Source of the DNA: Leucoraja ocellata
Taxonomy: Eukaryota
DNA length: 64,000 nucleotides
Reading direction: 5' to 3'
Assembly: GCA_036785375.1 (NCBI GenBank)
Contig: JAWMAR010000158.1
Coordinates: 1,488,001-1,552,000 of the forward strand
In this document: piece by piece, positions 5,421-53,276 of the stretch
How the letters are laid out: each line of letters opens with the position of its first letter
Numbering within the stretch: the stretch's first letter is position 1
Notes under the pieces: model-generated
What the model was told of the DNA's origin: nothing
Database searches by the model: none
The model's input: the letters and a program-made list of their open reading frames with translations, nothing else
Made by a program: the position numbers and the translations under genes

Positions 5421-5644
5421 TCTCCCAATTTTGTTATTCCTTGCTGTCTCCTCCCCTTCCTCAGTCCCCCTGCTGTCTCCTCCCATCCCCCAGCCTTCGG
5501 GCTCCTCCTCCTTTTTCCTTTCTTGTCCCCGACCCCCCGCCCCCGATCAGTCTGAAGAAGGGTTTCGGCCCGATACGTTGCCTATTTCCTTCGCTCCATA
5601 GATGCTGCTGCACCCGCTGAGTTTCTCCAGCTTTTTTGTGTACC
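5421..5644 (+). mobile_element. Short Penelope-derived (pseudo-LTR) insert with 14-bp TSD
   Basis: GGCGCTATCACACT occurs at both 5407-5420 and 5645-5658. The body matches the PLE terminal repeat that follows the GIY-YIG C-terminus at 30260-30480 and contains a hammerhead-like motif at 5552-5580. Confidence 0.8.
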
Positions 5645-5679
5645 GGCGCTATCACACTACCTGTCCACAGCCACATTTG

Positions 5680-5772
5680 GATAGCAGTAACAGGATCAGA
5701 CCAAGTCAGCATGGATTTACGATGGGGAAATCAGGCTTGATTAATCTTCCGGAATTTTTTGAGGATGTAATA
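5680..5772 (+). mobile_element. CR1 RT internal fragment
   Basis: Translates LDSSNRIRPSQHGFTMGKSGLINLPEFFEDV, homologous to the CR1 copies at ~17100 and ~33450. Confidence 0.75.
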
Positions 5773-6428
5773 GCTGATTCTCACGTTGCGAGTTGACACA
5801 AGAGGTAACCCGAGTTAAGACTCGTGGTAATAACGTACGATAATGTACGGAAATCGTGGACGCAACTTAGAGATTTGTGGCGCTAACGGCAGGTAATCGT
5901 GTAACTTGTCGACTCTTGCAAAAAAATCAAACATGTTTGAAATTTCCACGAGTCAATTTTACTCTTGGGGTTAAGAATTTAAACATTTTAACTCGCTGTA
6001 ATAAACTTAGTGGCCCGTGCGTTTACCTTACTGTATCGTGAGTCTACCGTGGAACTCTTTAACTCAGCGGGCAGGCAGCAGCAGGTTTTGGATCCCTTCA
6101 GTTTCCCAGCGACAATCACCTGCCGTAACGCGAGAGAGATCATGCACTGTTGTAGGTCTCCTTTGCACGTCGGTGTTTCTGTTTTTCTCCACTCATTGTT
6201 GGCCCTATCTGTCACCACCCCCACCTACACCCCTCTGCTTCCTGGCCATGTATGTGACCCCTTCCCTCCCTTCTCCAGCTCCCCGCCCATTGCACCGGCG
6301 CAGGGGCTTTGCACTGTCTTCATGTCGGCGATGCCAACAGGTCGATGCCAGTCGCCCCGGGGAAGTCGCTCCCTTCAGTTTCCCAGGGGGTCGGGACAGG
6401 GCTGTAGTTGGGAGGGAAAGGTGGTGGT

Positions 6429-6461
<33 letters not shown>
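6429..6461. repeat. Poly-G homopolymer (33 nt)
   Basis: Read directly from the sequence. Confidence 0.95.
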
Positions 6462-6463
<2 letters not shown>

Positions 6464-6677
6464 GGTGGGTTAGGTGAGCAGGAGAGTGGGGTTGATTGCA
6501 GTTGCAGAGGGAGGGGGCAAGGGCGGTACAGTTCCCAGTCTCAGCTCCTATCCAGGGGGGGTGGCCGGAGACATCAGGACCAATGGGACACCGACCCCCA
6601 GGCCCACCAGGCCCACTGCAAGCACAGAGATCCCAGAGCCAACAGCAACTCCAGCCCAGCCCCGCTCCAAATGGTCC

Positions 6678-7250: not shown

Positions 7251-7294
7251 TCACAGAAAAATTTGGTTTCACCTTAACTCATGATCTTCTTGGG

Positions 7295-13432: not shown

Positions 13433-14159
13433 GTAAGGTCAATGGTAACACTGTCGCCACTCTGGCTTCATTATAATCAGTGAAAGCAAGATCTTGGGTG
13501 AAAAGCAAAAGCTGAAAACCTGAAATACGAACAGAAAATGTGGAAAACTCAGCAGGTCAGAGAGCAATTATGGGGCGAGAAATATAGTTGACATAGCAGG
13601 TTGATGACTTTTCATCAAAACCCTGATGTGACTGAAATGAAACATTAGCTATTTTTCTCTCCACGATGCTTGCTGACTAACCGAGTGTTTCCTTTATTTT
13701 CTGCTTTACCTTGAAAGAACACACATCATGATTCTAATTTTCAAGAGTTTCAAATTTAATTCCAATAAATGTTGTTGTTATTCTTTAGTACTGTGTTCTG
13801 ATACCGTTTGTGGTTTATGCATTATTACCCCTGAATGAAAAGGAGTGGATTCTTCTTTTAGACATCTAATCATGGTGTAGTATGGATAATATTTGTGATT
13901 TTAATAGTTTGTGCTAGTAACAGGCTCAGGCGTGAATAATGATGAGTGAATTACATGGGGAAAAATGTATTCTCATCAGCAAATATTTTACTTAAAAATT
14001 GTCAACAAAATGTAGAAATACTATAGTAAAAATATAAGGAATAAAAATATTTTTCAAATTTGATAGACTTTCAGAACAGAATGGTTGTAGCAATTATCAA
14101 TTTGCATATATTTTAATCATGCAACATTATATTAAATCTTTGAACTCCTTTGCAGAAGA

Positions 14160-15730: not shown

Positions 15731-15851
15731 TGACTGTATACATATATAATGATATATTATCCTGAAAAAGAATGTCAAGACACCTAAATCTGACTTTAAG
15801 TATTTAGACGGTAAACACAAAATGCTGGAGTAACTCAGTGGGTGAGGCAGC

Positions 15852-17418
15852 ATAGAAACATAGAAAATAGGTGCAGGAGGAGGACATTTGGCCCTTCGAG
15901 CCAGCACCGCCATTCATTGTGATCATGGCTGATCGTCCCCTATCAATAACCCGTTCCTGCCTTCTCCCCATATCCCTTGATTCCACTAGCCCCTAGAGCT
16001 CTATCTAACTCTCTCTTAAATCAATCCATGGCGGGACTGCCTCCACTGCCCTCTGTGGCGGGGAATTCCACAACATTCACAACTCTGGGTGGAAACGTTT
16101 TTTCTCACCTCAGTCTTAAATGTCCCCCTCTTTATTCTAAGACTGTGGCCCCTGGTTCTGGACTCGCCCAAAATTGGGAACATTTTTCCTCCATCTAGCT
16201 TGTCCAGTCCTTTTATAATTTTAGATGTTTCTATATGATCACCCCTCATCCTTCTACTCCAATGAATACAAGCCTAGTCCTTTCAATCTTACCTCATATA
16301 ACAGTCCCGCCATCCCAGTGATCAATCTCGTGAACCTATGTTGCACTGCCTCAATCACAAGGATGTCCTTCCTCAAATGAGGAGACCAAAACTGTACACA
16401 ATACTCCAGATGTGGTCTTACCAGAGCCCTATACAACTGCAGAATAACCTCTTTATTTCTATACTGAAATCCTCTTGTTATGAAGGCCAACATTCCATTA
16501 GCTTTCTTCACTGCCTGCTGTACCTGCACGCCAACTTTCAGTGACTGGTGTACAAGGACACCCAGATCTCTCTGTACCTCACCCTTACCAAACCCAACCC
16601 CATTGAGATAATAATCTGCCCCCTTGTTTTTGCCGCCAAAGTGGATAACCTCACATTTATCTATATTATCCTGCATCTGCCACGCATCTGCCCACTTACT
16701 CAACCTGTCCAGGTCACCCTGCAACCTCCTAACATCGTCTTCACAGTTCACACTGCCACGCAGCTTTGTGCCATCTGCAAACTTGCTAGTGTTGCTCCTA
16801 ATTCCCTCTTCCAAATCATTAATATATATGGTAAACAGTTGCGGCCCCAACACCGAGCCTTGCGGCACTCCACTCACCACTGCCTGCCATTCTGAAAAGG
16901 ACCCTTTCACTCCTACTCTTTGCTTTCTGTCTGCCAACCAAGTTTCTATCCACTTCAACACCCTACCCTCAATACCATGTGCTCTAATTTTAGTCACCAG
17001 TCTCCCGTGCGGGACCTTATCAAAGGCTTCCTGAAACTCTGGATACATTACATTCACTGGCTCCCCTTCATCCATTTTACTTGTTACATCCTCAAAAAAT
17101 TCGAGAAGATTAGTCAAGCATGATTTTCCTTTCATAAATCCATGTTGACTTGAACTCATCCTTTTACTGCTATCCAAATGCCCCATTATTACCTCTTTAA
17201 TAATCGACTCCAGCATCTTTCCCACCACCGAAGTCCGGCTAACTTGTCTGTAATTCCTCGTTTTCTCTCTCGCTCCTTTCTTGAAAAGTGGGATAACATT
17301 ATCTATCCTCCAATCCACAGGAACTGATCCTGCAACTATTGAACATTGGAAAATGATCACCAATGCGTCCACTATTTCTAGAGCCACCTCCCTGAGGATC
17401 CTGGGATGCAGACCATCT
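15852..17418 (-). mobile_element. CR1/HER1 LINE, 5'-truncated, with an open RT domain (ORF 16254..17432)
   Basis: The 392-aa ORF has [55 protein letters not shown] (catalytic DD changed to DG) and [13 protein letters not shown]. 3'UTR and tail at 15852-15960. Confidence 0.95.
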
Positions 17419-17920
17419 CTGGGTCGAAGCAAAGGGTAATGGTTTGGTTCTTCTTCAGAGACCCTTCTTCAGATTGATGTAAGGGGAGGGGGCAAGAAAA
17501 AGATAGAATGTAGTCGGAGACAGTAAGACTAGTGGGAGAACTGGGAAGGGGAAGGGGATGTAGAGAGAAAGTAAGGGCTATCTGAAGTTAGAGAAGTCAA
17601 TGTTCATACCGTTAGGGTGTAAACTATCCAAGTGAAATATGAGGTCCACCAATTTGTGCTGGGCCTCACTCTGGCAATGGAGGAGGCCCAGGACAGAAAG
17701 GTGAGATTGGGACTGGGAGGTTGGTGCTGAAAACCGGGAGATCAGGTAGGTTAACACGGACTGAGCGGAGGTGTTCAGTGAAACAATCGCCGAACCTGTG
17801 CTTGGTCTTGGCGATGTAGAGAAGTTGACACCTGGAACAGCGGATACAATAGATGAGGTTGGAGGAGGTGTAAGTGAACCTCTGCCTCTCCTGTAAAGAC
17901 TGTTTGGGTCCTTGGATAAG
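17414..17920 (-). mobile_element. Penelope-like element 3' part: GIY-YIG endonuclease relic plus terminal repeat (terminal repeat continues at 15806-15853)
   Basis: Reverse complement of 17760-17870 gives TSSNLIYCIRCSRCQLLYIAKTKHRFGDCFTEHLRSV (GIY...YIG motif with CxxC). C-terminus LSVLGLLHCQSEA...LIFHLDSLHPNGMNIDFSNFR. Confidence 0.88.
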
Positions 17921-18607
17921 TATTTAGTATTCGATATTAAGTATTTAGATATGTGGAGGAAAGTTCCACTCATCATCCACTATGATTAATTGAAACAATC
18001 TGTGGGCAGCAGGATTTTCTCTTCTAATTAAACATAGGTTACTAATGAGTTGAGATCAAGGAAAGAGCATTCATGTCGCTGCCCTGTTTCCACCAATCTT
18101 TCCACCACCACGCACAAGAAGCACAAGAAGCGACGGATAGACACCATTGTATCCAGATGTCGAGAAGTGTGTTCAGCTCTGGCTGAACAACTTCTAATCT
18201 TGTTTGTGGACTTGATAAGAAGAAGAATGAGGAGCTGCCACTTATTAATCTGATATAGCAATCATATTCACGCAAATTATGGCATTACCACAAGAAACAC
18301 TGTAAGAAAACCATACATAAGATACATCATTTTCAATGGAAAAGGATCCATTTTGGTGAAGCAATAATGAAATGAATCTTATAATATTCATGATAAAACG
18401 AAAAACTATGCCCACTAAATTAGGCATCAAAATAAAATTTGCTGGTAGAACTGCCAAGTCAAGCAGCATCCGTGGAGGCAAAGGGATGATCAACATTTTG
18501 GGTTGAGACGCTGCATCCAGTTTGAGACTGTAGAATGAAGATAGCCTGTACATTGAAGTGAGAGGGAGGAGTGAGAAATGGGCTGGTAGCTGATACATGG
18601 AACTGTA

Positions 18608-18725
18608 AATAGACACAAAATGCTGAAGTAACTCAGCGGGGCAGGCAGTACCTCTGGAGAGAAGGAATGGGGGATGTTTCGTGTTGAGACCCTTCTTCTG
18701 AAGAATCTGCAGTTCCTTCCTACAC
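18608..18725 (-). mobile_element. Penelope terminal-repeat fragment
   Basis: 'atagacacaaaatgctgaagtaactcagcggggcaggcag...gagacccttcttc', the same family as 35193-35285. Confidence 0.75.
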
Positions 18726-20140: not shown

Positions 20141-22848
20141 CAGATGTGATTGGGAGTCAACACATTTGTAACTGAACAGTTAATACTAAAACACATTATG
20201 TAAAAATATGTCATAAGCATTTTAAACATGTGTCCATTAGAACAAACAATGATATTACCCTTACAAAAGTCATATGTACTGAAGAAAACCAATGCAACCT
20301 CATAAATGATAATGTGTAGCAGGAAAAATCTGATTTTTGTTTAACACCTATTTTCCCACCACAAAAGCACGTTAGCAGGCTTCTTACTGTAATTTCCTTC
20401 TTATTCCAAGATGACTTTCTTATTCCAATTCCCACAATTACTTGAGCTGACTTTACTGATTCCTGAGGAATTATATTTTGTCATTCTATTATTTTGTTAT
20501 TTATCAGAACAGATCTATGTATCATTTTACACACACTGTGTATCATGAATAACAAGGCTTTATGTAGAATATCATAAAAAGCTCGTTCAAAGGTCTTGGT
20601 CACAGCTTATTCACAAATTTGTAACTGTTTTTTTTTGCTGTTATATCCCCTGAAGCAATTCTTATTTTCTTTATGGTGTAAGGTAAACAGAGGTTTTATT
20701 TCCATTATACCACCATAAATGTTGTATCCACAATCACATTCCTGAAAGATCAATATAACTGGCCATTAACATCATCTCAAAGGATAATCACCGATCAACT
20801 TCCCACAGAGATGGGTGGTGTTAAAGTAAAAGAAGGCACAGAAGGCCAACAGTTGTAGAAGTGCAATCAATTCCCCTGAGTGTGTGATTGAACTATGGAA
20901 GGACTCCTTTTATTTGAAGACATGATCCATTAAACAAATTCTTCTGAAGGGAGCACCTTAACTTAACCTCACAGGAATTATTCCTTCACATTTATCATTA
21001 TAGTTCCTGATCTTGCAGGAAATAGATCTTCATTCTAGATCTAAGGTTTCAACCACATGAAATAAGAACAAGTGTACACTGCACAAAGTTTCACAATATT
21101 ACAGGATATAGTTATTGTCGCAGAGATTCTCTAGTTTATAAATTTTGTATTCCAATTATAATTCATGCCATCCTTTGCACTTCACCTTTCAGACCGCCAG
21201 TAAGGTAGATAAAACACACTTTAATAAAATCCTAGGTTCCTTTTCATGAACCAATGAAGATTTATCGTGAAAATCATATTAGATTTTTGGGGAGTTGGGG
21301 GATATATTGTGACATCTCATCCTTTTTAACATAATAATTACAACAATATGATCTGATCTTTATTGAGAAAAAGAATGCCTGCTATCTTTGCTCTGCAATC
21401 TATAGTTTAGTTTAGTTTAGTTTAGTTTGGTTTAATAAAATAATAGAGAATAATGGTGATTCTCAGCAGCAACTATGCGAGAAAGAGTAAACATTGCAGA
21501 TTGATCTGATGAAGAGGTCTTTAATATAAATCATTAACTCACATTTCCTCTCTCTATATAGATGCTGCATGGACACTTGGGTACATCCAGTAATTTCTAT
21601 TTTTATTTCAGATGTCTAGAATTTGCTGTTTTTTTTGTTTGCTTTTACTTTACTGTTCTACCACCTGCCATTTTTCTTTAACATAATAGATTTCAATTTT
21701 CCTTTTTGACACAACAGCTCAGTCCCATTTAAGGCAGCTGGTTATGAATGATTAGTGATTTCTGTTATCTGCCTTATATAGCTCAGTTTTACACTAGAGT
21801 TCCACCTTCATTAATGCAATGTAGCTTGCAAACTAGATGGTACCATTTTGTAAATAAATGAATCATTTGTCATTACATTAATATTCACATACTCATATTG
21901 AACAGTCCTCTCATAAGTTAGGGTGTAGTCCTGATCTTCCAATCTACTTCATAGACATTTGGACATTGGACATTTTCACAGGATCTGTACCACTAAAGTG
22001 TTGTAAACAATATTCTGGCACTCTGGAATTTTCTCTTTACACTACCTGTTGTACTTGTGCATGGCTTCTTTGACCTCAAGTGCAATATGATGTGATTTAA
22101 TTGGAGGGCAGGCAAACAAAAGCTGTTTACAGTACCTTGGTACATGTGACGATAGTAAACCAATACATATGGTCATTTATTCGATGCAAACATATCATTA
22201 TATTGTAAATTGTTAGCTTCCAATACAATACGAAGGTATATTTATTTTCCAAAACCCATGGAAGTAAGGAATGATGTGATATATTTATGGTGTGACAAGT
22301 CTAGCATTAGGTTTCAATGGTAAAATAGGTTATCTTCTCCATATAACAAAATGCATAATTTTTACCCTGGCTCATTGAGCCTTAATTCCACACCTGGCGG
22401 AAAGCTGCAGTGATGGTGGAAAATTGCAACCAGTCCAAAGTTGATTGGACACTCCCCCTAATAATTGGTTAAATTGGTGGTTTGTCAGCAGGCAATCATC
22501 TTCAGTTAGTAATATCAGCATGAAGCAGAACAGAAACTATTACCTCTCTGTCTCAAAACACACGCTGTAGTGAGCACAAAAGGCATGCAAAGATATACTA
22601 TTTTTAAAAGTGTACATTAGTTTTCCAGCAATCAATATGGAAATACTGTTCTTAGATTCATGTATTTTAGAAACTATGTACTTATAAATCCATGACTTCA
22701 GTCAAAAAGATATGAGTGTTAATGTTCAAATTATAGGGTACTCTGTCGACCTCAACTATATTATTGACAGTATGAATTTTCCAGTAAGTACTCAAAGAAT
22801 ATAAATTGAATGAAATAGAATGCAGGTTATGTTACCTGTCAGCAATAT

Positions 22849-24299: not shown

Positions 24300-24428
24300 G
24301 AAAAGAACTGCAGATTCTGGTTTAAATCGAAGGTAGACACAAAATGCTGGAGTAACTCAGCGGGACAGGCAGCAGCACTGGAGAGAAGGAAAGGGCGACG
24401 TTTCGGGTCGAGACCCATCTTCTTCATC
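24300..24428 (-). mobile_element. Penelope terminal-repeat insert
   Basis: 'gaactgcagattctggtttaaatcgaaggtagacacaaaatgctggagtaactcagcgggacaggcagc...gacgtttcgggtcgagaccc'. Confidence 0.8.
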
Positions 24429-25475: not shown

Positions 25476-25729
25476 CGTCATTCCCAGGAATGAGGCAGGG
25501 TTTTTTTCTCATTGGTGGAGCAGGACAGCACAAAATAAGAAAGTTGTTTTGGTTTCAGAATATCAGTGCAGGAGATTTCTAGTGCTGTATCAAGCCTAAT
25601 CAACGACTTATAATTGACTACACCTCAATCAAATTGTCAGACATGCGGATATTCATTTATTTATTGTACACCATCCAGTTACATTGGCATTGTCAGATAG
25701 TCGGCTGGAGGGCTATGTATTCAGAGGAG

Positions 25730-25960
25730 CAAGATTAAAGTTGGTAAGGGGAGTAGAGAAGTCAAGATGGTTGACGATGCACTGGAAGTTGGAAATAAAA
25801 AGTTCCAGTGAGGGTTAAAGGCTGTCAGGGGCAGTCCATGAGGAGAAGGAATGTTGGAGACAGGACATCGCCTATCCTTGCTCTCCAGAGATGCTGAGTT
25901 ACGGCATCACTTTGTCTCTTTTTTTGTAAACCAGCATCTAACAATTTAAATCCTACAAGT
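25730..25960. mobile_element. Penelope RT fragment (-) abutting a terminal-repeat fragment
   Basis: 25740-25860 is homologous to 1665-1780, followed by 'tctccagagatgctgagttac...ccagcatct'. Confidence 0.6.
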
Positions 25961-26479: not shown

Positions 26480-27380
26480 AACTGCTGTGGATGAAGTTAA
26501 TGTGTGAAAGTGCACAGTCATCTACTTTGCTACCCAAAATCAAAATATTTTCTAAGCAACAAGAGGTTAATGCCTATCTGAACTATTGTCAAAGTGCGGA
26601 GACCACTAGTAGATACTGGATTTTCAAACTAAAGTCGAAAAGGATACTGGATTGTGGATGTGTAGTTCTGGAACTAAGTAAGGAAAGAGGTTTATTTGCA
26701 ACACTTCAAACCACTAGTTGGAGCCCACCTGAAGAACTACACTTATTTTTAGGCTCAACAATAGGTAGGAAACATTGGGCTTGGAGAGACTGCAGTATGG
26801 ATGTAGCAGAATGTTTACTTGACTAAAAAAGATTAAATATGATATGAGGTTGCATAGACTAGATTTGTGTTTCCTTTAGCATAGATTAAGTAGTGGGCAA
26901 AATGAGGTGGTGATAGTAATTAAAGGATTTGTCAAAATCGATAGAGGATAGTTAGTCTGAAGAAGGATTTCAACCCAAAACGTCACCCTTTCCTTTTCTC
27001 TAGAGATGCTGCGTGACCTGCTGTGTTACGCCAGCATTTTGTGTCTATCTTCAATAGAGGAATTGTTTGCTTTGGTGGAGGCATTGGTGTTTTAGATCAA
27101 AAGAGCCCATATCAAAATTAGATCTAGACCTTACAGGTGTGGGATCAGAGAACATTTCATCGTACAACGTATAGTGGAGATCTGGAACTATCACAAGGTA
27201 TTCTGCTTCTATCTACAGTTACAATATCATTTGAAAATTTCAACATTAAGATTAATAGTGTTAGCCATGTGTTATAGAACCAAGCCACACAGATTGAATT
27301 TAATTTGAAGGCCACCATCATCTAATTCAATGGTAAAACAAGGGATGCATCATCTCCTCTTGTAGCTGTGTTTCAATGGG
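26480..27380 (+). mobile_element. Old degraded CR1 with a Penelope repeat inserted at 26952-27052
   Basis: CR1-like 'aaacactactagttggagcccacctgaag'-type (RPHLE) region and 'cgtatagtggagatctggaac'. The insert begins 'agtctgaagaaggatttcaacccaaaacgtcaccc'. Confidence 0.5.
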
Positions 27381-27969
27381 GCATTTTAAACTTTAAGATT
27401 AATGCAAACAAATAATATCTCCAGCCATTACATTTCAAAAAATGCACCCATTACAACTGTTTAATTTAATAGCAATAATATTTTTACCCATGGATCCATA
27501 AATTATATTTTTGTCAAAACATGAACCAAAATTTAAAAAAAATAATTATTCATTTTAAGCATAATGGAATACCCTACACTCCATTCATTAGCAATCCCAA
27601 GAAATACATTTTATTTATCAAGTAAACCTGAATCTGAGAGACTCAAAACAAAAAAGATTACAGATGCTGGAAATTCAAAATAAAAGTAGAAAATACTGGA
27701 AATACACGTGTCAAGCAGCATTTGTGGAGAGTGAAGCAGATTACAGTTTCAGGTTGATAATTCTTCATCAGAGAGTCCTGATAAAAAATCATTAACATGG
27801 ATATCTTACACAACAGTTACTGCCACACGTGTTGCGCATTCCCAATGAGTTCTTTTTGATATATGTTTCTGTTAATTACATTTATAAATTGCCACACTAA
27901 CTCCTACAGAAATAGGCAAAGAATCATGCAACACTCCTGTGAATAGAAGATAATTATGGTGGCCACATG

Positions 27970-30110: not shown

Positions 30111-30139
30111 CTGCAAACTTACTAATCAAGTATGTTCAA

Positions 30140-30485
30140 CATCCAACCTTTCTGTCCTGGGCCTCCTCCATGGCCAAACTGAGCACCACTGGAAATTGGA
30201 GGAGCAGCACCTTATATTTCGTTTGGACAGTTTATACCCCAGCGGTATGAACATTGACCTCCAATTTCCCGTAGCCCTTATCATCTCCTCCCCTCCTCAG
30301 CTCTCCCTCAGCCCTCTGGCTCCTCCTCTTCCTTCCTTCTTCCCACCCTACATCAGTCTGAAGAAGAGTTTTGGCTTGCAACGTTGCCTATTTCCTTCGC
30401 TCCATAGATGCTGCCGCACCCATTGAGTTTCTCCAGCACTTTTGTCTATCTTCGATTTTCCAGCATCTGTAGTTCCTTCTTAAAC
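30140..30485 (+). mobile_element. Penelope-like element 3' end: GIY-YIG C-terminus plus terminal repeat
   Basis: SNLSVLGLLHGQTEHHWKLEEQHLIFRLDSLYPSGMNID, then a pyrimidine tract, 'catcagtctgaagaagag...caacgttgcc' and 'ccagcatctgtagttccttct'. Confidence 0.85.
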
Positions 30486-34643: not shown

Positions 34644-34921
34644 AAAATGCATAGCTCCTTGGACTGGAGACCTTGCTCTCCTGGCACTATAAACAAGAAG
34701 TGGTAATTTGCATTTTGCAACTTATTTCCATAGGGTAGGCACATAGTCCTAGTGATATCTCCTATTGCTCAGGAATATTACATGTGCAGAAATATGCAGT
34801 CCTAAATCACATTAAGCATTGAATGCATTAGGAAGCATTATTTGTGCTTTGTAATTGATTTTCCAATTCAGTTTAACCACAGCAGATGGAAAATCAATCA
34901 CACGATTGAACAAATTGGTTA

Positions 34922-35050
34922 TGAAGGAACTGCAGATGCAGGAAAATCGAAGGTAGACAAAAATGCTGGAGAAACTCAGCAGGTGAGGCAGCATCTATGG
35001 AACAAAGGAAATAGGCAACGTTTCGGGCCAAAACCCTTCTTTAGACTGAA
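34922..35050 (-). mobile_element. Penelope terminal-repeat insert
   Basis: 'gaaggaactgcagatgcaggaaaatcgaaggtagacaaaaatgctggagaaactcagc...caacgtttcgggccaaaacccttctttagactga'. Confidence 0.8.
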
Positions 35051-35192
35051 CTTATTGGCACAGGTTTCCTTTTGGGTTGTGTGATCTCAATGATACAAAC
35101 AGTTCAAGTCAATTCTACATTCTAGCACATAATCCTACTGGCATGGCAAAATAAATCAGAAATTAACTGAACAATCATGGAAAATATTCAAT

Positions 35193-35375
35193 GATAGACA
35201 CAAAAAGTTGGAGTACCTCAGCAGGACAGGCAGCATCTCTGGAGAGAAGGAATGGGTAACGTTTCTGGTCGGGACCCTTCTTCAGCCAAAGGGTATCGAC
35301 CCGAAATGTCTCCCATTCCTTCTCTCCAGAGATGGTGTCTGTCCCATTGAGTTACTCCAGCTTCTTGTGTCTATC
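35193..35375. mobile_element. Fold-back (inverted) Penelope terminal-repeat element
   Basis: Arms of about 85 bp: GATAGACACAAAAAGTTGGAGTACCTCA...GGAGAGAAGGAATGGG versus CCCATTCCTTCTCTCC...TGAGTTACTCCAGCTTCTTGTGTCTATC. Confidence 0.88.
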
Positions 35376-36429
35376 TTATAAAAGAGAATACTGGCTTGAA
35401 GGAAGCAAATTAACTGATTTCCAAATTGGACAGCTCTAAGTCTAATTTAGGTTGAGAAAGCTCATCAATATTATTCCAACACCCTCTACCCGCCACCCCC
35501 ACCCCCAACCTGTCAGCATCTACCTGTCACTCCATCTCGTGGCTCAGAAGGCAATTGTCAAAGAGCCCAGTATAGAAACAATCAACTGGCCAGTGTACAT
35601 ATGTCACTGGGATGTCCAGTATTTACTGTATGTTGTCAGAAGACCAAACAGCTTTTGTGCTCTGTAGTATGTTCTGCGAATTTGATTAACACTACAATGA
35701 TCGCAAGCTCACATCATATTAGCAACTGTATACTTTTAAGATATAACTAGGTTTAAGATTTAGAAGTATTTAATTGTAACTGGAGCATCTTGCAAGTGCA
35801 TACGTTCTACAATTAAGCACAACCAAAAAGTAACCACAATGACGTTGTTCCTCTTGGAAAATGATTTGATTCTGACTATTATCCTCGTGTAAAATTATTT
35901 TCTATTTTATGAACAAATTAGAAGACAGCTGTAATTATGGTTGCTCCAGGGCACTAACAAATGTAAAGTTCATGAGGAAGAGGGTTGTTATTAAAGGCGC
36001 CAAGACTTTATCCCGTTGTTTAAATGTACCTGTTTTTACATGTTTGGCTTTGTTGAAAATCACCTGTACAGTCTTGCGAGGCATCCTTGTCAGCCACTGC
36101 TTTTCCCAAAGTACTTCATTCAGATCATGCCAGCAAGACCGCAACTGGCAATCCTGTGAAGTGATTAAGCTCATTCTCTCATCAGTTGTGGCGCCAGCTT
36201 TGTAGGTGCACAATTCTTTATAGGAGAACATAACATTCATGTGACAGGTCAGACCGGAGATTCCAGATGCTAATCATTATAGTTACTATAAATTATCTTT
36301 GAATTTTAGCCAAAGGCTAGTTGCATTGATTTTGCAACAAAAGTAATTTTCATAAAACTTCCACAGTTAACCTTTGCAATAACAACTACTCAACAACGTA
36401 CCTCGGTGACTGCCAATCACCACCCCCCC

Positions 36430-38665: not shown

Positions 38666-38705
<40 letters not shown>

Positions 38706-39384: not shown

Positions 39385-39625
39385 TACAGTCAGTCAACAT
39401 GGAAACAGGCCTGTCGGCCCAACTTATCCATGTTGACCAAGATGTTCCATCCTTGTTAACCCATTTACCCGCGCCTTGCCCGTGTCCCTCTAAACCTTTC
39501 CTATCCAGGTATTTGTCTTTTAAAAGTTGTTTAAAAGATAACGTGCTAGAGTAAATCAGCGGGTGAGGCAGCATCTGTGGAAGGAATGGATAGGTGATGT
39601 TTCAGGTCTTTTAAATGTTGTTATA
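39385..39625 (-). mobile_element. CR1 3' fragment with a small Penelope repeat inside (~39535-39607)
   Basis: 'catggaaacaggcctgtcggcccaacttatccatgttgaccaagatg...ccctctaaacctttcctatcc'. 'tctttta' recurs on both sides of 'gtaaatcagcgggtgaggcagcatctgtgg'. Confidence 0.65.
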
Positions 39626-39861
39626 AGACTGTTTGTTTTTGCCAGAAATTCCAGCATCTGTAGTCTCATCGCGTACCTTCAAACTGAAAGGGCTGCATAC
39701 GTTGAAAGATTAAAATGTATTAAATGATGAAAAAAACACAAAATTCATACAGTATCCATGTTTTGGAGAAAATAGGGTTAAGATTTTGAGGAGACACAAA
39801 GACTGCAGATATTGGAATCTGGAACAAAAAATACATACTGCTGGAGGAACTCAGTGGGTCA

Positions 39862-40192: not shown

Positions 40193-40566
40193 GAAATGTG
40201 CAGTCAATGTTTGGGAGCAAGACTGGACTGATGAAAATTCTCAATCTGAAACGTCAGCTTTCCATTTCTTTCCACAGCCGATGCCTGACCTGCTGAATTT
40301 CTGCAGCAGGCTCAAATTTTCAAGGATATTTTGTCAAATTGAGGGAATTTAAGAATGGAACACCAATAAGGAGGGAAAGAGGAGGATGAAAATATAAAAT
40401 CAACATTTCTGATTGAATGAAGGATAGGTAATTTAATGATACAATTAATTATCGTGTAGGATGAAAGGAGGCCATAAAGTAAAGATGTATGAGAACACAT
40501 AAGTGCACAGAGCTGGGGAGAAATACCAGTAGCATGAAAATCTAGCAAAGCAGTCGATCATCTGCT

Positions 40567-43375: not shown

Positions 43376-46287
43376 GTTCATGCCACAGCTATTCAACATG
43401 TTTAAAGTGGGAAAAAAAATCTAAAACGTTGGACAGTTTTCCAATTGCTTTAATCAAAAATGCTAGTCGTTGTGCTTTAAAAAATTGAAAAAATTTAATA
43501 AATTGGTTTATTGTCAAAACTGGCATGCATTATTAATAAAGTAGTGATAGTGAAATAGCGTTCAACTCAGATAGATAGATTAGGATTTATTGGCCAAGAA
43601 CCCTTGAACAGTTTTATCAAAAGCCCATTCCTGTGTGACATTTGTTCTGCAATAAATCAAAAAGCAGAAATCTATTAGTGGACAGTAGTAGTAGATAAAT
43701 GGAGATAGGGGAAAAGGGTCATCAGAGATGTTTCAGTAATGTGGCTAGGCAGCAGTGTAAATGCACTTTTTAAAGTTTACAAATGATTATTTTACTAACT
43801 AACTGTCCCCATTTAGCATTTTGGTAAATAACATATCTTCAATTGCAAGTATTGGGAATGATTTCCAATTTGAAACAAAGCTTTGCATTTTCAAACAAAG
43901 TGCAGAGAAGAGAAGAGATTTCAGTATCACTAAAAAGTGGGAAACTGCTTGGATTGAAAACAACAAATAAAAATATGACACACGGGTGAAAATATCAGCT
44001 AAATATATTGATATTTTTCTAAGGAAGTGCTTTATCGGCTGTTCACTTAATATGTGCAATGCACAAGGGTGCAAGACCCAAACTGATCATGAAGTGTGAC
44101 ATGCCAGGATTGTGGGTGGACTACTGATGACTTGGAATTCTGGAGCATTTGTGTTGTTCCGCTTAAAATGGCAAGTATCTTGATAAGAAAATGTGTCCAA
44201 GTCAAAATAAAACAAAGGAGGGTTTGAATTTGTTCTTGCACTGGGCATTACTAAATTTGTGCTATTGTGAGTTAGAATTCATGATCAGCTACCAAAAGAT
44301 GCATTTTAATTTGGGATTGGAATCTGGTGTATAAAAACCAAGCAAGAAGGGAATTGTCTAGTTCCCCGGATCACTGATGAAAGCAAACTATAACCTGTGG
44401 TTGTTCAACTCTGACTCCTGCCTATAACTGATGGAGGTCAAAGAGATGGGCAGGGATAGTTCCTATTGGAGGCATTCCAAATGGAAGTATGCAAGGACTG
44501 AGGAGTTGGTAACTCCAGAATTGCATGACTGCAATTGATGTTATGTGAAATGCTGAGATAGGCAAGATACTGAAAGACAAATAAAACTGCTGGTGCTGAA
44601 ATCTGCAACAAAGACAAAAAACCTCGAAGAGTTGATCCAGCAGATGTGGGGAAAGAAGTTGTCAGCAAGCATTCAAAGGAGTCTGAGGTACAGTTGTTGA
44701 CCTGAAGCAATAACAATGTGGCCTCTTTCCACAAAGGCTGCTTGACTGGCTGAATTCATCCAGCATTTCTAGATTTTTTTCCTTCTCGACAAGATACTGG
44801 ATGGAAATTCTTCCTTGGCTCTGTGTGCTGAACATGGAACGTTGTGGTGGATACCCATCATGCTCTACTACCAGAATCTGAATCCATTGAAATTTATGGA
44901 ACTGAATGTCAGAAGCAAACCCTGTGGAACATTTTGAGATATCCTGGGATGATGGATGGCACAACACAAACCTCAGAAGGGGATGAAACCTCCTCTGCAG
45001 CCATCTGTGGAGGTGTTATTCCACTCTGACGTAATTTATCACCATGTAGTTTAGCAACACCACAATACAAATTAAAACAATCAAAGAACAAGCCCAGCTG
45101 CCCAAAATATGACATCCACAAATTACTGTAGGCTGAAGAGGGGGCTGACACAAATCATCATGCAATGTTTTCCTCCAGAGATGTTGCCTGACAGGCTGAG
45201 TTACTCTAGAGCTTTGTGTCTATCTTCGGTATAAACTCAGCACCTGCAGTTCCTTGTTTCTACTGACGGGTCAAACTCTACACTGGTCCAAGAGGTAAGA
45301 ATGAGATGTTTGCGGTTGTGTTTGGTTAAAATGTTCCACAGTAGTCAGCGTCACTGTCTACTCTTTTCACAATGGAAATTGTGAACTGGATACAGTGATT
45401 TGTTTTCAACCTCATGGTGGTACTTCCAAAAGCACATGGATTAGAATATCCTCTTCCTCAAGTCAAACTGCTCCATTAGAACTATTAAACTGTCTTTTAT
45501 CCAATAAAATTTCTGCCCACTAATTAACACCCTATAAGCCCATTCCTAATCAACAATGTCATCGTGGAAAAATGCATCCACGTACAGCTCATTAATGCTT
45601 GGTTCAGATTATACTCATGGACTATTGAGATCAATGGTGGAGGAGAAATGAAAACGGCGTTTTTTAAATATTTAGCTGCAAATGGTGTTGAAGAATTGAA
45701 GCAAAACCAGTCAATGACACAATGTCAAAGTACAAACCCTGCAATAAATTAAAATAGAGGCCTTCCATGATTTCAAGATATGATTGCGCCTACCATGATT
45801 TCAGGACATGCCAAAGTTTTCTACAGGAAATAATGCACTGTACATTATGCTAAATTATTTCTGTTTATTTCTCCACAAATGCTGATTGTTCTGATGAGGG
45901 TTTCCAGTAATTCTGTTTTATGGCATCATAGAATTATACAACACAGTAACAGTCCCTCAGGCCCACCTCATCCATGCTGACCAAGTTTTCTATTTAAACT
46001 AGTCCCAAGTGCTTGCATCTGACCCCTTGCTCTAAACCTTTCCTATCAGTGGCATGGTGGTGTGGCGGTAGAGTTTCTGCCTTGCAGTGCTTGCCGTGCC
46101 AGAGACCCGGGTTCGATCCTGACTACGTGTGCTGTCTGTACGGAGGTTGTACGTTCTCCCCGTGATCTGCGTGGGTTTTCTCAGAGATCTTCCGATTCCT
46201 CCCACACACCAAATACGTACATGTTTGTAGGTTAATTGGCTTGGTATATGTATTAATTGTCCCTGAATGAATGAGCGAATAAGTTTA

Positions 46288-46410
46288 AGAGGGAACTGCA
46301 GATGCTGGAGAATCGAAGGTTACACAAAAAAGCTGGAGAAACTCAGCGGGTGCAGCAGCATCTATGAAGCGAAGGAAATAGGCAACGTTTCGGGCCGAAA
46401 CCCTTCTTCA
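46288..46410 (-). mobile_element. Short Penelope terminal-repeat insert with 15-bp TSD
   Basis: GAGCGAATAAGTTTA (46273-46287) and GAGCGATTAAGTTTA (46411-46425), 14/15 identical. Confidence 0.82.
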
Positions 46411-46411
46411 G
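46384..46411 (-). ncRNA. Minimal hammerhead ribozyme motif (PLE-associated)
   Basis: Reverse complement reads CUGAAGA-A-GGGU-UUCG-GCCC-GAAAC-GUU. It has the conserved core, a 4-bp stem II with a UUCG loop, a loopless palindromic ACGU stem III and an NUH triplet. Stem I is not clearly formed in this copy. Confidence 0.6.
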
Positions 46412-46869
46412 AGCGATTAAGTTTATTGGCCAAGTATTCACATGCAAGGAATTTGCCTTGGTGCTCCGCCCACAAGTGACAACATGACATACAGTGACGG
46501 TTAAGAATGATACATAAAACATTAAACATTAATAATAAAACATTATTGATTAAACATAATGTTTAATCAATGTTTAAAGCAATTCATCAATACCAATCCT
46601 TTCTGGTGGGTGTAGGGTTAATGTGCGGGGATCACTGGACAGCACAGACTCGGCGGGCCGAAGGGCCAGTTTCCACATTGTATCTCAAAAAAAACCGAAA
46701 CTATCCATGTACCTGTTTAAATGTATTTTTAATGTTACAACTGTACCCACCTCTACAGCTTCCTCTAGCAGTTCGTTCCGTATACCCATTGCATTTTGTT
46801 TGAAAAAAATGCCTGTGAGTCCCTTTTAAATCTTTGTTCTCACTCTAAATCAATGCCCCCTAGCATTTG

Positions 46870-47045
46870 TTGTAGGAAGGAACTGCAGATGCTGGTTTAA
46901 ATTGAAGATAGACACAAAATGCTGGAGTAACTCAGCGGGTCAGGCAGCATCTCTGGTTAGAAGGAATGGGTGATGTTTTGGGTCGAGCCCCTTCTTCAGA
47001 GATGCTGCCTGTCCTGCTGAGTTACTCAAGCATTTTGTGTCTATC
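46870..47045. mobile_element. Fold-back Penelope terminal-repeat element
   Basis: GATAGACACAAAATGCTGGAGTAACTCAGCGGGTCAGGCAGCATCTCTG (from 46907) is inverted with CAGAGATGCTGCCTGTCCTGCTGAGTTACTCAAGCATTTTGTGTCTATC (to 47045). An imperfect 'ccc.ctagc.ttt' duplication lies at the flanks. Confidence 0.85.
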
Positions 47046-47546: not shown

Positions 47547-47744
47547 TTGGGCTCCAGGGGAAATAATCTCAACCCATCCAGCCGTCCCTTATTGTTCAAA
47601 TACTTCTGTCCTATAAACATTCTTGTGAATCTTTTCTGCCCCCATGATCACATTCTTCCTACAGTTGCAGGGCAGGACTGCACACAATACTCTAAGTGCG
47701 GTCTCACACAATTTATTGCAACACAATTAATTACTTTTTGCATT

Positions 47745-47975: not shown

Positions 47976-49132
47976 CAATGCAAAGGATGTTGTTACAGTT
48001 AGAGTGTGAATCATTGCTGTCCAGGCTAACATTGCAATGGTTTTTCAGCGAAATATCTTCGGTATTTAAATCTTCAATGTCTTCATTAAAGACTTTTTGA
48101 CTGAATGAATAACTTTGAACCATCAAATATTAGTTTGAACACAATTGTAGGTTGTGGCCTGATACAGGCACCAAATGTTAGGAAAGTGGCTCGAAAAAGT
48201 TAACATTAGATTGACTAAATTGATTCCAGACTAAATAGTAAATGAGATATTTATGTTGCACTGATAGCCTGGTAAAATTTGTTATTCTCTTGTGATCGGA
48301 GGCAACAGAAGCATCTGATAGAAGTATTTAAAGTGTGCAGACAGAGTAAACCAAGTGAAACTATTGCCAGACAGAGAAGTTGTTATATGGTTAAGTAAAA
48401 AACTAAGATGCAAGGAATGAAGGTGAATGGCAAAAGAGCTGAAGATGACCTGAGAAAAAATGTTTTTACATCGTGAGGGGTTAGGGTCTGGAATGCAATG
48501 CCAGGGGTGGTAGTTAAGGCAGAGCCAATCATACCGTAAGTAACTAAAAATAATTTGTAGGACCAGGAGGAGTGAGTGTGTATTATAAAACAATTTGTTT
48601 TTGATTTTTACTTGTAAACTGTCATAAAATCGTAATCAAAAAGCACAATTACTGTTACTGTAAGTTAGCATTCAAGAATTGTGTAACGGATGCGTACACC
48701 ATACATGTTTTGATGTTTCTGTTATTTGCGATAAAGATCTATGGTTTTGTCCTTACCTGAGGGGATGGCCAGAAATGTGGCAATGTGTAAATACCTCATT
48801 GTCAGACAAGCCATTCCATGTAGTGAATAGAACCGGTTGCCAGTTTGTTAGTTAGAAAGATTACAAACAAAGACCAGCTAGTGTACACTACAGGGTCATG
48901 AAATTAGTGGGAACATTGCATTTTCATCATTTCTCCACAGGAGAAGAGGTTTGCAGGGGAAATGGGGTTGGAATGGGGTGTAAATACAGAATTGGGAAAG
49001 TGGAAGCAATTGAAAAGAGACTGGAAATTATAGAGCAAATTAAATTGTGATTTGTCAAGTGAATTCCACACAATGACTGCATATTGGAAACTGAGGGTGG
49101 AATCTGATGTCTTCTGACAGACTGGAGAAAGC

Positions 49133-49449
49133 ACGGTCCCGGTGGTGCAGCGGAAAAGTTGTTGCCTTACAGCGAATGCAGCGCCGGAGACCCGGGTTCG
49201 ATCCTGACTACAGGTGCTGTCTGTACGGAGTTTGTACTTCTCCCCGTGACCTGCGTGGGTTTTCTCCGAGATCTTTGTTTTCCTCCCACACACCAAAGAC
49301 GTACAGGTATGTAGCTTAATTGGCTTGGCAAATGTAAAAATTGTCCCTAGTTGGTGTAGGAAAGTGTTAATGTGCGGGGATCGCGGGTCGGCGTGGACCC
49401 GGTGGGCCGAAAGGCTGTTTCCGCACTGTATCTCTAAACTAAACTAAAC
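49133..49449 (+). mobile_element. tRNA-derived V-SINE (HE1-like), full length and young
   Basis: A box 'TGGTGCAGCGG', B box 'GGTTCGATCC', V-domain 'ctgtctgtacggagtttgtacttctccccgtgacctgcgtgggttttctccg' and (CTAAA)3 tail. CpGs are retained. Confidence 0.93.
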
Positions 49450-50074
49450 ATGGTTAAGACAGCGCTGAAAAACAAAAAGGAAGCAGTATGCCAATGGCAT
49501 TCAGGAGCATAGGTAGTGTTGCCAAGCTTCATTGACGACCTAATGTCATTGTGAGGTTTTTTTGTATGCTTCAGAGAAACTAACAAACATCAGCTTAACG
49601 TGAAACTTAACTCTGTACCTATCAACAAGTACATACATGTTTACAGGGAGGGGAGTGGAACTAGTCAGTTTGCTTTAACAAATTGGCAGGCTAAATGCCC
49701 TTCTGAGATGCTGGAAGTATTCTGAGATTCCATAAGTAAATCTGCATTTCTCTTCATTTATAACATCCAGGCCATGACTGGCAAGTGGTAAATTGGCATT
49801 GTTATTGCACAAATGCCACAAAGTAATCATTTCAAACAAGAGGAAACCCAAATTGCAGTTTTAGATCAATGGCACTACCATTGCCAAGGCAATAACCTGA
49901 GCATTATCCCTTACCAAGCAGAGCAACCATTTCAGCATCGTAACTATTAGAAGAACATAAAACATAGAACAGCACAGCACAGGAAGGAGCCTAATCTACC
50001 TACACATGAGCCACATCCCTCCATTCCCTGCACTTCCATGTTTCTATCTAAAAGCCTGTTCTTGATGAAACTGC

Positions 50075-50520
50075 ATTCACAGTATTGTGCGCAGTTCTGG
50101 TTGGCAAACTATGGGAAGGCTGTCATCAAGTTGGAAAGCATGTAGTAAAAATTCACAAGATTCTTATGGGGACTGGAATGAAGTGTTATAAGACGAGAAT
50201 GGCTCAGCTGGGGCTTTTTTTTCTCTGGAGCTTGGGAGACTGAGGGATGCCCTCATGGAGGTATGTAAAATCATATGGGGCTCAGCTAAGTGAATGGTCA
50301 TAGTTTATTTTTCCAGGCGAGAGTGGTCAGAAAATAGAAGGCATAGTTTAGAGAAAAAGTCGGAAGAAATTTAAAAGGGACTCAAGGAACAACTTTTTCA
50401 CCCAGAAGACTGTGGATATGTGGTGCGAGCTGCCAGAGGAAGTGGTAGAGGATGGTATAATTCTACATTTAAAAGACACTTAGATAGGTACATGGATAGG
50501 GAAGGTTTACAAGGATGCAG
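50075..50520 (+). mobile_element. CR1 C-terminal/3' fragment
   Basis: 'cagtattgtgcgcagttctggttggcaaactatgggaagg' (YCAQFW) through 'ttaaaagacacttagataggtacatggatagggaaggttta'. Confidence 0.78.
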
Positions 50521-50671
50521 ATGCTTCCCGGTTTGCTGAACACCATGCTGATGAATGTCGATTCTGGCAGGGTAAGTAAGTGCACCAAGTACTCTCTGGA
50601 CCTCCAATTGGAAATCGCCAATTTTTCGGGCAAGAATTGGATATCTATTGTCAGAACGGAAAGCTGTAGTT

Positions 50672-50701
50672 CTGATGACGGGTTCTGAACCCTGAAACGT
50701 T
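50672..50701 (+). ncRNA. Hammerhead ribozyme-like motif within a Penelope terminal repeat (50665-50790)
   Basis: CUGAUGA-c-GGGUU-cug-AACCC-u-GAAAC-GUU, followed by 'acagatgttgcctgaccta...ccaacattctgttttta...tgcagcatc'. Confidence 0.55.
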
Positions 50702-53276
50702 GATGTTTCTCTTTACACAGATGTTGCCTGACCTACTTTTCCAACATTCTGTTTTTATCTCAGGTTTGCAGCATCAGCAATGTTTTTATTTTATTTTCAT
50801 CAGGTATCTATTGCTATACAATGCCTGGCCCAGTAGGGCTCTCCCCTCAGTTAAAAATAATAATGAAAGTTACTCTGTTTTTGTTATTTCTCCACTTACA
50901 AAATAGCATACAGAATAAGTTTTAAATTATCAAATGGATACAAAATAATTGAAATTAGCTTCACAAACTTCACAATAATCACAATATCTTGAAATGGAGT
51001 ATCTGGATATCTGGCCAGTGTGGGCAAATTGGGTCAAAGGGCCTATCTCCACACTTTATCGCTAATTTTCCAAACTCCAGAGCTGAGAACCCGCTGAAGG
51101 GATAAGAAGGAGTTTAAACAGTTTCTCTGAGCACTGAAGCAGTCATAATGAATCTGTCAATTTCACCTTCACCATGAAAAATTAAGCAGCTCAGGTAATC
51201 TGCTAACATTTGGATTTTTAAGATAGCCACTGAAAAAAAAGCAAAGAAAGGAGCATAAAACATGAATTGGTTGCCTACTGTCATTGTCCTCAGCTGATTT
51301 ACAACCACTTTGTGTTTGATGTTGACTGGGATAATTTCATCATTCTCCAACCCTTGTGATCATGTCCAAAATGACTAGTCAGGTGAAGACATTGCAGTAG
51401 ATTACTTGTCACCTGTAGGAAGTCGTTGTCTTGATCTGAGAAGTGGGTTTACTCATGAATGCAATCATCTATTAGTTACTCACATAACCGCGGTTAGAAG
51501 CCTGGGAGTTGCACTAAGGATGTAATCACCATATTGAGAGCTTGTTTCAAAACAACAGATGTCCTCAGAACACGTGATTTTTGCATTTTGGGCAAGGTCT
51601 AGGTTTTTCTGCTTCTGTGCATTTTAACTTTGGTGATGTGAAAGCTTATTCACGCACACAGATGTATTTTGTATTGTATGCCTATCATGTAACAAAAGAT
51701 TAAACATTTCTATAAATGAATTATATACAATGTAGAGATAGCCTTTGGCTACAAGGTATTTGCAGCTTGGTGACTCTTGCACTAATAAACAGAGACAAAA
51801 AGAAGTAGTGACTGGCGTCAGGCACTCATCCCTTGAAGGCACGGCTCAGTACAAGCCAAATCTTGTAGTTGCTTTGGCAAAGTCCCGCAGTGATGTTTAT
51901 AATGTACAGATCCTTTTTTTATGCCTCTGTATATTCTCATTTATCTCTACTCAATTAATGTAGATTTCAGGGCACTTCAACCTTTTTTAACGAAACATTT
52001 ACTTTAAATTATACATTAAAATGTATCTTCTATCTTTGAAAAGGTATTCACAAACTGATGTCTTAGGTTATCATAATTCTAATGAGATATTATCATTATT
52101 TGAAGTCAGAAAAAAAAAATTACTTCTTTGTGACATCAAGGGACATTAACAAATCATATCAAAATAATATAACAAATTAAACCAGTTGGCTTAATGACAA
52201 AGTATACAAAAAGTCCACAAAGTACCTCTAAATTTCTGTGCAAAATAATTTCAATAAATTTAGAGAACACTTAAATCACCGAACGTCAATTAGTCATCTG
52301 AGAATTCAAATGAGGAAAAATATCATTAGGTGAGAATTCTTTTGGAAAGAAAATAGTTTCTCTTCCAGAAGTGGCCAACAATTTATCATTGGTTCGATAA
52401 TAACTTTAAAAATCCCGATGTATGGTTCTTCCTTTTCAAATATCAATTTCTAATAAGCCGTCCTATTTCACAATTGGTTATTTGTTATTGAAACATACAC
52501 CAGACAAAATAAACTATGCTGAGTGATAGCAAGAGTGCATTTCCTCAGTGCTATGTACAAAAACTAAGAGTAAGCAAAAAATGCATACAAGTTTGTTCTT
52601 GCTTTTCTTTAAGGAATCAGTGACCAAACAGAAATGTCTTCAATCACATAAGCATGTGACAAAACCTAGCCCCCATTCTCATTAGATTTTTTGATAATAA
52701 ACACCTTTCATTTCAAAGAAGGTGGCAGGATGCTAAAAAAAAATATCGTCAAGATTTTTAATGTTCCTCAAACCTAGTTTTAAGTTTATTCTGACACATT
52801 GCTCGGCTACAAAAGTGACAGACTGAAAACAAATTCATGTTCCATGTTCCAATGAGCATGTTATAAACTTACAGAATAAACTCCCAAGGAGCCATGCAAT
52901 TAAGAAGGTTGATTTCAATAAAATCCATTTCATGCATTATTTTAAAGAAATCTATAGTTTGCAGTAAGAGTAACACATTTAAGAAAATAGAGATAGCTGT
53001 GTGTCAGTGGTTCCTGAGCCTCTCCACCACTGAAGGCTTTCTTACATCATCTCTCAAACTTGAACTGATAAATATTGATTGTCAGATCATGTAACTACCA
53101 GTTTTATGGATGACAAACTAACTGGACCATGGACTTTGCTTTCAAGCATTTCTTATACTCGTCTGCTTGATTGGTATCAGCAAACAATCTAAGATGCCCC
53201 CAGAAGCATGTTCATTGGCAACCAGTCATAGTCATATAGAATGGAAAAGGCTCTTTGGCCCAACTCATCCATGTTC

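Follow-up and report, generated by a model that had tools for sequence, protein, structure and literature searches.

Minimal hammerhead ribozymes (min-HHRs) of Penelope-like elements (PLEs) have been reported in the fish elements Neptune, Poseidon and Xena, and solo minimal hammerheads left by truncated PLEs have already been described (available part of PMC4209133). Retrozymes derived from the pseudo-long terminal repeats (pLTRs) of PLEs have been described in vertebrates, including one chondrichthyan (bioRxiv 10.64898/2026.07.22.740005, in part). The accessible text of PMC8557442 and PMC3846280 names a tail, inversions and target duplications as marks of PLE inserts, and the former gives a Zn-finger-like linker as the mark of Neptune and Nematis elements. 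PLE transcripts start inside the upstream pLTR (PMC2377424, in part), and a PLE reverse transcriptase (RT) primes inside the RNA at two sites matching tail ends, requires open reading frame (ORF) sequence downstream of the priming sites and does not require hammerhead cleavage (PMC11167929, in part). Here, we analyzed a 64-kb stretch of Leucoraja ocellata DNA (contig JAWMAR010000158.1, positions 1,488,001 to 1,552,000; hereafter the window), in which short hammerhead-bearing inserts recur. These inserts are scattered and degenerating copies of a PLE's end module (pLTR), the PLE being likely of the Neptune type, and most of them begin just before the hammerhead core.

[quoted passage not shown] A nhmmer profile made from ten module copies was run on the window and on a reversed-window control. 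The profile revealed 27 module matches at E<0.1 (30 at E<=1) and none in the control; after one LINE-split copy and two inverted pairs were merged, 24 insertion events were obtained. The first-pass annotation of this DNA had counted more than a dozen recurrences, which was thus borne out, and all of the sites that it named were found, upon reading, to have the sequence described. Its size estimate of ~100-220 nt held only at the upper end for one copy (5421-5644, ~220 nt), as typical inserts were 70-130 nt long. The pattern CTGAWGA-N8-30-GAAAC gave 10 matches in the window, with 0.59 +/- 0.77 expected; two of these overlap each other, and 5 are not module copies. In the Rfam scan, no model reached its gathering score anywhere in the window, and 45000-51000 gave no hammerhead family at E<=10; since the Rfam models seemingly do not cover the minimal form, this result is no evidence against the hammerhead motif. 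No RNA run containing the unique flank was present among the matches listed.

Positions marked with a sign are counted from C3 of the hammerhead core. In the sense direction, the order of components was as follows: a GIY-YIG C-terminus, a stop, a pyrimidine tract of 75-130 nt, TCAGT, the hammerhead, ~65 nt and the 3' end or ends. The hammerhead comprises CUGA(A/U)GA, a bulged A, a 4-bp stem II and GAAAC-GU(U/C), which supports the proposed minimal type I fold with a loopless ACGU stem III. Two discrete 3' ends were found ~30 nt apart, one at +92..100 and the other, after an optional 30-nt tail, at +123..125; the tail was the main 3' loose end in reads. The pyrimidine fraction just upstream of the core was 0.81-0.87 in the three long copies (99th percentile, 0.75), and the tract ended in CAG in two of the three.

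A GIY-YIG C-terminus had been placed directly before the module, and we confirmed it at 17414-17920 and 30136-30485. The endonuclease piece 17711-17914 matched 707 proteins at E<=0.001 with HMMER; two word-indexed protein searches gave no matches. The Pfam scan did not recognize the broken PLE pieces of the window, including 17711-17914, and the five top protein relatives scanned matched Pfam GIY-YIG below the curated cut-off. A Zn-finger-like linker was present in the nearest relatives, P0001 and P0005, and in 65 of 150 matches by regular expression; two further relatives (P0014 and P0024) have RT and GIY-YIG in one protein. Because the linker of these nearest endonuclease relatives marks Neptune and Nematis elements, the source element is likely a Neptune-type PLE, as judged from protein similarity; the window copies break off before the linker region. 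Target duplications of 12-17 bp flank the copies at 5421-5644, 46288-46412, 24302-24426 and 39532-39605 (0/400 random pairs score >=12), and weaker duplications were found at 26957 and 55159. An inverted 5' piece was present in four events (35285/35288, 46999/46993, 18700 and 25844). As the GIY-YIG C-terminus, the tail, the duplications and the inverted pieces are all present, the PLE origin claimed earlier stands, and mobilization by PLE machinery is likewise supported. For comparison only, a metagenome scan supplied 100 loci of other PLE families, none of which matched the window profile; no full-length pLTR-ORF-pLTR copy was found in the window or in these loci. In one family among the latter, 5' ends gather 7-20 nt upstream of the core, and fold-back junctions are frequent there. 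The window also holds a decayed PLE-type ORF fragment at 1037-2000 on the minus strand, which covers part of the N-terminal region, reaches the RT motifs and has no module joined to it, and an old GIY-YIG C-terminal fragment at 20015-20140 (minus) with no detectable hammerhead module behind it.

The 5' ends of the inserts gather in a narrow zone. Fifteen of the 24 events start within -7..+3, whereas 5 reach the pyrimidine tract or ORF, 3 start at +18 or later and 1 is unreadable; in the two young subfamilies, 9/12 start within the zone. Memoryless truncation, whatever its mean length, would place a fraction of <=0.057 of the ends there, and under it the P value for 13/24 starts is about 1e-10. 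A continuous length distribution, as expected from random 5' truncation, had been named beforehand as a finding that would speak against a distinct family, and the observed distribution is not continuous. The duplications abut the boundary at 46411, 24424, 26957 and 55159, with scores of 13, 12, 9 and 8, respectively; in a control of 400 random pairs, 0 reached 12, 14 reached 9 and 49 reached 8.

Four public runs were aligned on 5340-5668 at 85% likeness: X24 (bulk RNA) and X22 (single-cell RNA), both carrying a related organism label, and X1 and X3 (DNA contigs, in which depth is no measure of copy number). As evident from X24, the depth over four successive 11-nt bins of 5527-5570 was 61, 486, 4602 and 6197. 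In X24, X1 and X3, the strongest 5' loose ends upstream of the core, among those listed, fell on the A (5549) and the G (5550) of TCAGT. They comprised 864 and 737 of the 12,525 aligned reads in X24, and 142 and 223 contigs in one DNA run and 182 and 190 in the other. The flank agreement at these ends was low (0.33-0.34 in five of six rows and 0.53 in one), and many different insertion sites are therefore represented. In DNA, these flanks are not pyrimidine tracts. No pile of molecule ends was reported in the four runs, and no loose end at the cut site (+28, after 5579) was found among those listed. We also observed fold-back joints at 5550-5560 in reads, and reads clipped at 5586 that carry the hammerhead of subfamily B, from which it follows that subfamilies A and B are both abundant. 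Separately, X22 covered the ORF end and 3' untranslated region (UTR) at 5417-5537 to a depth of ~1,500 in one orientation versus 35-420 in the other, far above bulk RNA; long elements may be transcribed in the X22 cells.

Heavy 5' truncation is known in PLE copies (PMC8557442, in part; PMC8969392), and long copies align poorly upstream, so that a pile-up might be an alignment artefact of the variable pyrimidine tract on top of truncation with no preferred stop. The duplications that abut the boundary in four copies and the loose ends at 5549/5550 in DNA, which do not adjoin pyrimidine tracts, make this reading hardly credible; pure random truncation was rejected, being largely refuted by these two observations.

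These results showed that the inserted template held an uncut hammerhead, that priming occurred at two fixed places and that -3/-2 was where synthesis mostly stopped. Ends that are sharp immediately ahead of the core, with none at the cut site, indicate an uncut template and leave one position to test. Two other origins of the ends were considered and rejected. Cleavage would define ends at +28, and the 5' ends lie near -3 in the window and among the listed read ends. A spliced template would bring a shared exon and thus high flank agreement, in contrast to the observed 0.33-0.53.

We regard it as about an even chance that the 5' pile-up consists of run-off complementary DNAs (cDNAs), made by the element's own RT from an uncleaved RNA that likely starts there. 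The PLE transcript would start at the A of TCAGT, which would place the hammerhead and tail at the 5' end of the RNA. TCAGTCT fits the initiator consensus YYANWYY. Internal priming near the RNA start would let the RT reach the RNA end after 95-128 nt and yield a short copy, and priming at the downstream pLTR would give the rarer long copies. The free cDNA end could fold back and produce head-to-head pairs; a free end of this kind at the boundary agrees with the fold-back joints in reads and with both inverted pairs of the window. The short copies would then be dead on arrival and the hammerhead a passenger. The 2-bp stem I, the only stem I pairing in the young families, fits an RNA starting at -3, because such an RNA could form no more. 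With somewhat less confidence than even, we propose further that the inserts are strong-stop-like cDNAs that became integrated, and that in their thousands they preserve, like fossils, the two ends of a single reverse-transcription reaction, namely the internal priming site and the capped RNA start. If this is true, the transcript start of a PLE can be mapped from genome sequence alone, and the solo minimal hammerheads flooding animal genomes are explained without a short interspersed nuclear element (SINE) or a retrozyme. The ribozyme would also sit at the very 5' end of an mRNA, with the capped start 3 bases before an uncut hammerhead.

Several observations weigh against run-off at an RNA start. 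The four runs cannot reveal a cap or an RNA start, and, as no full-length element was found, an order of hammerhead, tail and then ORF is so far only presumed in this family; downstream PLE protein similarity was present in 1/94 metagenome matches, and this one was an endonuclease piece. For D. virilis, the available text puts the start ~120 nt upstream of the hammerhead and the end of an intron at helix I (PMC2377424, PMC4209133); in the window copies, the pyrimidine tract and CAG resemble that intron acceptor. One metagenome family piles up more loosely (14/24 at -7..-20, with some duplicates left in), another does not pile up (1/16 within 25 nt), and TCAGT is absent in the metagenome families. 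As for the boundary itself, the 5' end of 6 old copies was deduced from the missing pyrimidine tract, and the loose-end picture comes from 6 listed rows per run, with 1016 further rows beyond them. The depth step is partly a reference mismatch, as long copies diverge in the pyrimidine tract; in X22, such copies were clipped near 5546-5547. Additionally, the X22 depth upstream, from reads that run into the ORF end, is about a fifth to a quarter of the module depth.

Some of these points are in favour of a stalled RT. According to this second reading, the RNA is longer and unspliced, and the RT stalls or folds back at the junction of the hammerhead with the pyrimidine tract and CAG, perhaps because of splicing factors or structure there. 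The upstream pyrimidine fraction of 0.81-0.87 in three long copies with a CAG end in two, the intron of D. virilis with its end at helix I (PMC4209133, in part) and the fold-back joints at the boundary all agree with it, as does the metagenome family that has no TCAGT and gathers its ends in a T-run 7-20 nt upstream of the core. However, the listed peaks at 5549 and 5550 are single-base sharp, which is more run-off-like than stall-like, a sister metagenome family with a similar T-run has no pile-up (1/16), and long copies do read past the site. We consider a stall rather unlikely, although it is the chief competitor of the run-off reading.

The first-pass annotation had suggested a self-propagating, non-autonomous SINE- or retrozyme-like family selected for its structure. 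As a SINE-like family, the short copies would be transcribed from an internal or flanking promoter and mobilized by PLE protein in trans; the discrete 5' and 3' ends, the target duplications and the large excess of short over long copies are as expected, and non-autonomous PLE derivatives have been reported (Chlamys in the accessible text of PMC8557442; bioRxiv 10.64898/2026.07.22.740005). On the other hand, subfamilies A and B each include short as well as long copies, and in subfamily A the short and ORF-bearing copies are closest relatives (up to 98% identity). The boundary recurs in old and young subfamilies alike, the core is not extra conserved, and the RNA of the anole element must extend beyond the priming sites, into sequence that an inserted short copy lacks (PMC11167929, in part). 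Among the 12 young events, a small sample, fixed ends were present and a lineage separate from the long copies was not seen. A SINE-like origin is improbable in our assessment, and the self-propagating, structure-selected family was poorly supported in view of the shared subfamilies, the lack of tandem arrays, the decay of the core and ends that lie off the cut site.

The integrity of the hammerhead was low among the 23 copies examined. The whole core (CUGANGA, GAAA and UH with the palindromic stem III) was kept in 4/23, and core and full stem II together in 1/23, the copy at 46384-46411. Four copies had been singled out as the best; 46384-46411 deserved this description, whereas the other three have stem II defects, namely a G.A mismatch at the stem base in 35258-35285, a decayed stem at 40228 and a C.U mismatch at the closing pair in 50672, as read from the sequence. 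The core mutations noted at 5552, 26957, 30358, 35044 and 24424 are present. The A14 mutation of the 5552 copy (GATA) is private, with A in 3177/3278 and 3230/3324 bulk-RNA reads; it is the sole core position among the 40 variant rows listed from reads, and there it is the mutation of the reference itself. Unrelated Neptune-type families of the metagenome (L003-L100, e.g. L005:3477-3563, L009 and L012) have a near-identical hammerhead core.

Stem II differences between subfamilies had been taken as evidence of selection on structure, but these are U.G versus U-A, one-sided and not compensatory. In stem I, two-sided changes occurred in 3/3 pairs (0/500 shuffles) in an alignment of 18 rows, 8 from the window and 10 from the metagenome, the latter hand-picked from 47 distinct ones. 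At least three stem I pairs were present in 81/101 metagenome matches, and the search pattern had not demanded them; stem II pairing in these matches was partly fixed by that pattern. This supports, at the level of aligned sequences, the view that stem I conservation between families reflects selection on active source PLEs and not on the window copies. Selection on individual copies was rejected. Non-CpG departures from the subfamily majority numbered 3/40 in the core and 11/248 elsewhere in subfamily A (4 copies; Fisher P 0.42), and 12/64 and 55/501 in subfamily B (8 copies; Fisher P 0.10); for four of the B copies, the count omits a few positions at junctions. Decay in the core is at least as fast as in the surrounding sequence, if anything worse, with no sign of selection on the copies.

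A retrozyme cycle, in which hammerhead cleavage and ligation yield small RNAs, linear or circular, for reverse transcription and insertion, has the minimal hammerhead in its favour. Non-LTR retrozymes are reported in one chondrichthyan genome (bioRxiv 10.64898/2026.07.22.740005, in part), and reads contain rare 34-nt head-to-tail core joints (13-15 bulk-RNA reads each). We find this cycle very improbable here: neither the window nor the listed read ends place the ends at the cut site (+28), only 1/23 copies has an intact core and stem II, and folding predictions for the monomer hide the core inside a different hairpin. A tandem retrozyme was also rejected, as 0/25 Tandem Repeats Finder rows in the window hold the module, paired copies are head-to-head and 5' ends lie near -3. 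In the folding predictions, the young window motif forms the other hairpin, and one metagenome motif folds hammerhead-like. The 34-nt joints cross the hammerhead at 5556-5592 in both RNA and both DNA runs, and the sequences that they bring together correspond to both arms of the alternative hairpin in the folding prediction.

Subfamily A includes both long and short copies. The young copy at 5421..5644 (plus strand) consists of a pyrimidine-rich 3' UTR (5421-5548), TCAGT, a hammerhead with C3 at 5552 and the short 3' end, and is flanked by a perfect 14-bp duplication (5407-5420 and 5645-5658). The short copy at 46288..46412 (minus) has a tail, starts at -1..+1 and has a 15-bp duplication with one mismatch; it is 98% identical to the long 5552 copy. 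The long copy at 30136..30485 (plus) contains the GIY-YIG C-terminus, pyrimidine tract, a mutated hammerhead (C3 30358) and tail, and the short, tailed copy at 34920..35049 (minus) starts at about -5 with G5 mutated. The long copy at 17414..17920 (minus), listed here regardless of subfamily, comprises a GIY-YIG domain with 68% identity to P0001, which has the Zn-finger-like linker, a pyrimidine tract and a scrambled hammerhead. This copy is not cut off: a CR1-type LINE interrupts it, and the module continues in the 3' remainder at 15803..15853 (minus). The LINE (15851-17418, with a 404-aa RT frame) sits inside the PLE end module and is younger than the PLE copy, since it was inserted into that copy.

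In subfamily B, the tailed short copy at 24302..24426 (minus) starts at about +1 and has a perfect 12-bp duplication, and the tailless one at 26949..27050 (plus), with homology from about -3 and G12 mutated, has an 11-bp duplication with one mismatch. The tailed short copy at 55035..55157 (minus) starts at about +2, has a marginal 10-bp duplication and lies beyond the span annotated earlier. Two B modules at 35185..35377 form an inverted, head-to-head pair that meets where the hammerhead core begins on its 5' side (35285 minus, 35288 plus). At 46871..47045, a tailed B module (minus, start -1) follows an inverted partial copy (46993-47045, plus), and the junction lies on a short microhomology. 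At 18610..18722 (minus), the B module (18610-18701) is preceded by an inverted piece of its own tail, and 45130..45256 (plus) is a diverged B-like short copy with a tail and a start at about -3..0.

The older family includes 50668..50790 (plus; CUGAUGA core, 5-bp stem II, start about -1..-4), 40228..40308 (plus; intact core, decayed stem II), 27658..27771 (minus; start about -1) and 44680..44768 (plus; start about -3). Old decayed copies were found at 13531..13617 (minus, E 2e-4) and 21507..21629 (plus, E 3e-3). Part of the upstream pyrimidine tract is retained in an older copy at 18439..18600 (minus, 0.73 pyrimidine) and in a diverged, tailed copy at 63640..63810 (minus), again beyond the earlier span. 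Truncated copies comprise 39532..39605 (minus), which starts within the hammerhead at about +18 and has a 17-bp duplication with one mismatch, and 25706..25939, in which a module truncated at about +20 (25844-25939, plus) is joined to an inverted fragment of a PLE ORF N-terminus (25706-25860, minus). The 3' part of a module at 39802..39861 (minus) adjoins a LINE fragment and has no readable 5' end, and 45869..45914 (plus) is a weak partial match from about +40 (E 0.06).

Two features unrelated to the module were also found in the window. A long inverted repeat at 47155-47547 (87 nt, 91%) encloses a hairpin at 47396-47467 with sub-threshold microRNA matches and is probably an element resembling a miniature inverted-repeat transposable element. 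At 38290-38915 lies a GC-rich island that contains (AGC)13 and open frames that overlap one another; it may represent a promoter or a first exon.

Upon comparison with the min-HHRs of metazoan pLTRs described by Cervera and De la Pena (2014, PMC4209133), the window motifs showed several shared features: both have CUGANGA, a bulged base before stem II, a G-C base pair, GAAAC-GU(H) and no loop 3, and both are mostly single dispersed motifs, there called 'probably related to truncated PLEs'. The young window families differ in their 4-bp stem II and 2-bp stem I (2 bp is also reported for D. virilis), and a fixed 5' boundary is not described for min-HHRs in the available part of that paper. Non-LTR retrozymes (PMC7229834; bioRxiv 10.64898/2026.07.22.740005, both in part) are likewise non-coding and pLTR-related, with type I hammerheads and dispersed monomers; in contrast to the inserts here, for which neither trait was seen, they are defined by tandem arrays whose successive units carry hammerheads, and by circular RNA.

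The insertion units of Neptune-type endonuclease-positive PLEs (PMC8557442 and PMC3846280, in part) share the C-terminal GIY-YIG, the pLTR, the optional 30-40 nt tail, the inverted 5' copy, the target duplications and the strong 5' truncation. Their truncation is variable, whereas most ends here lie in an 11-nt zone. The Anolis Poseidon element PAc (PMC11167929, in part) has two RT start sites that match tail ends and uses uncleaved RNA as a template, and its hammerhead is inactive without protein; it belongs to another clade, and the 5' ends of its genomic copies are not discussed in the text available. D. virilis Penelope (PMC2377424, in part) also has a transcript start inside the pLTR and a pyrimidine tract with an acceptor-like site adjoining helix I, but there the start precedes a 75-nt intron by 46 nt and is located far upstream of the hammerhead. 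The literature searched, to which subscription papers, Repbase entries and supplementary figures did not belong, contained no mention of copies whose 5' boundary is fixed at the core. The family itself is thus an expected inhabitant of such a genome, and its fixed 5' boundary is a testable oddity that may matter, as it bears on how PLEs make tandem and inverted inserts and on the role of the hammerhead, both subjects of the available parts of PMC8557442 and PMC11167929.

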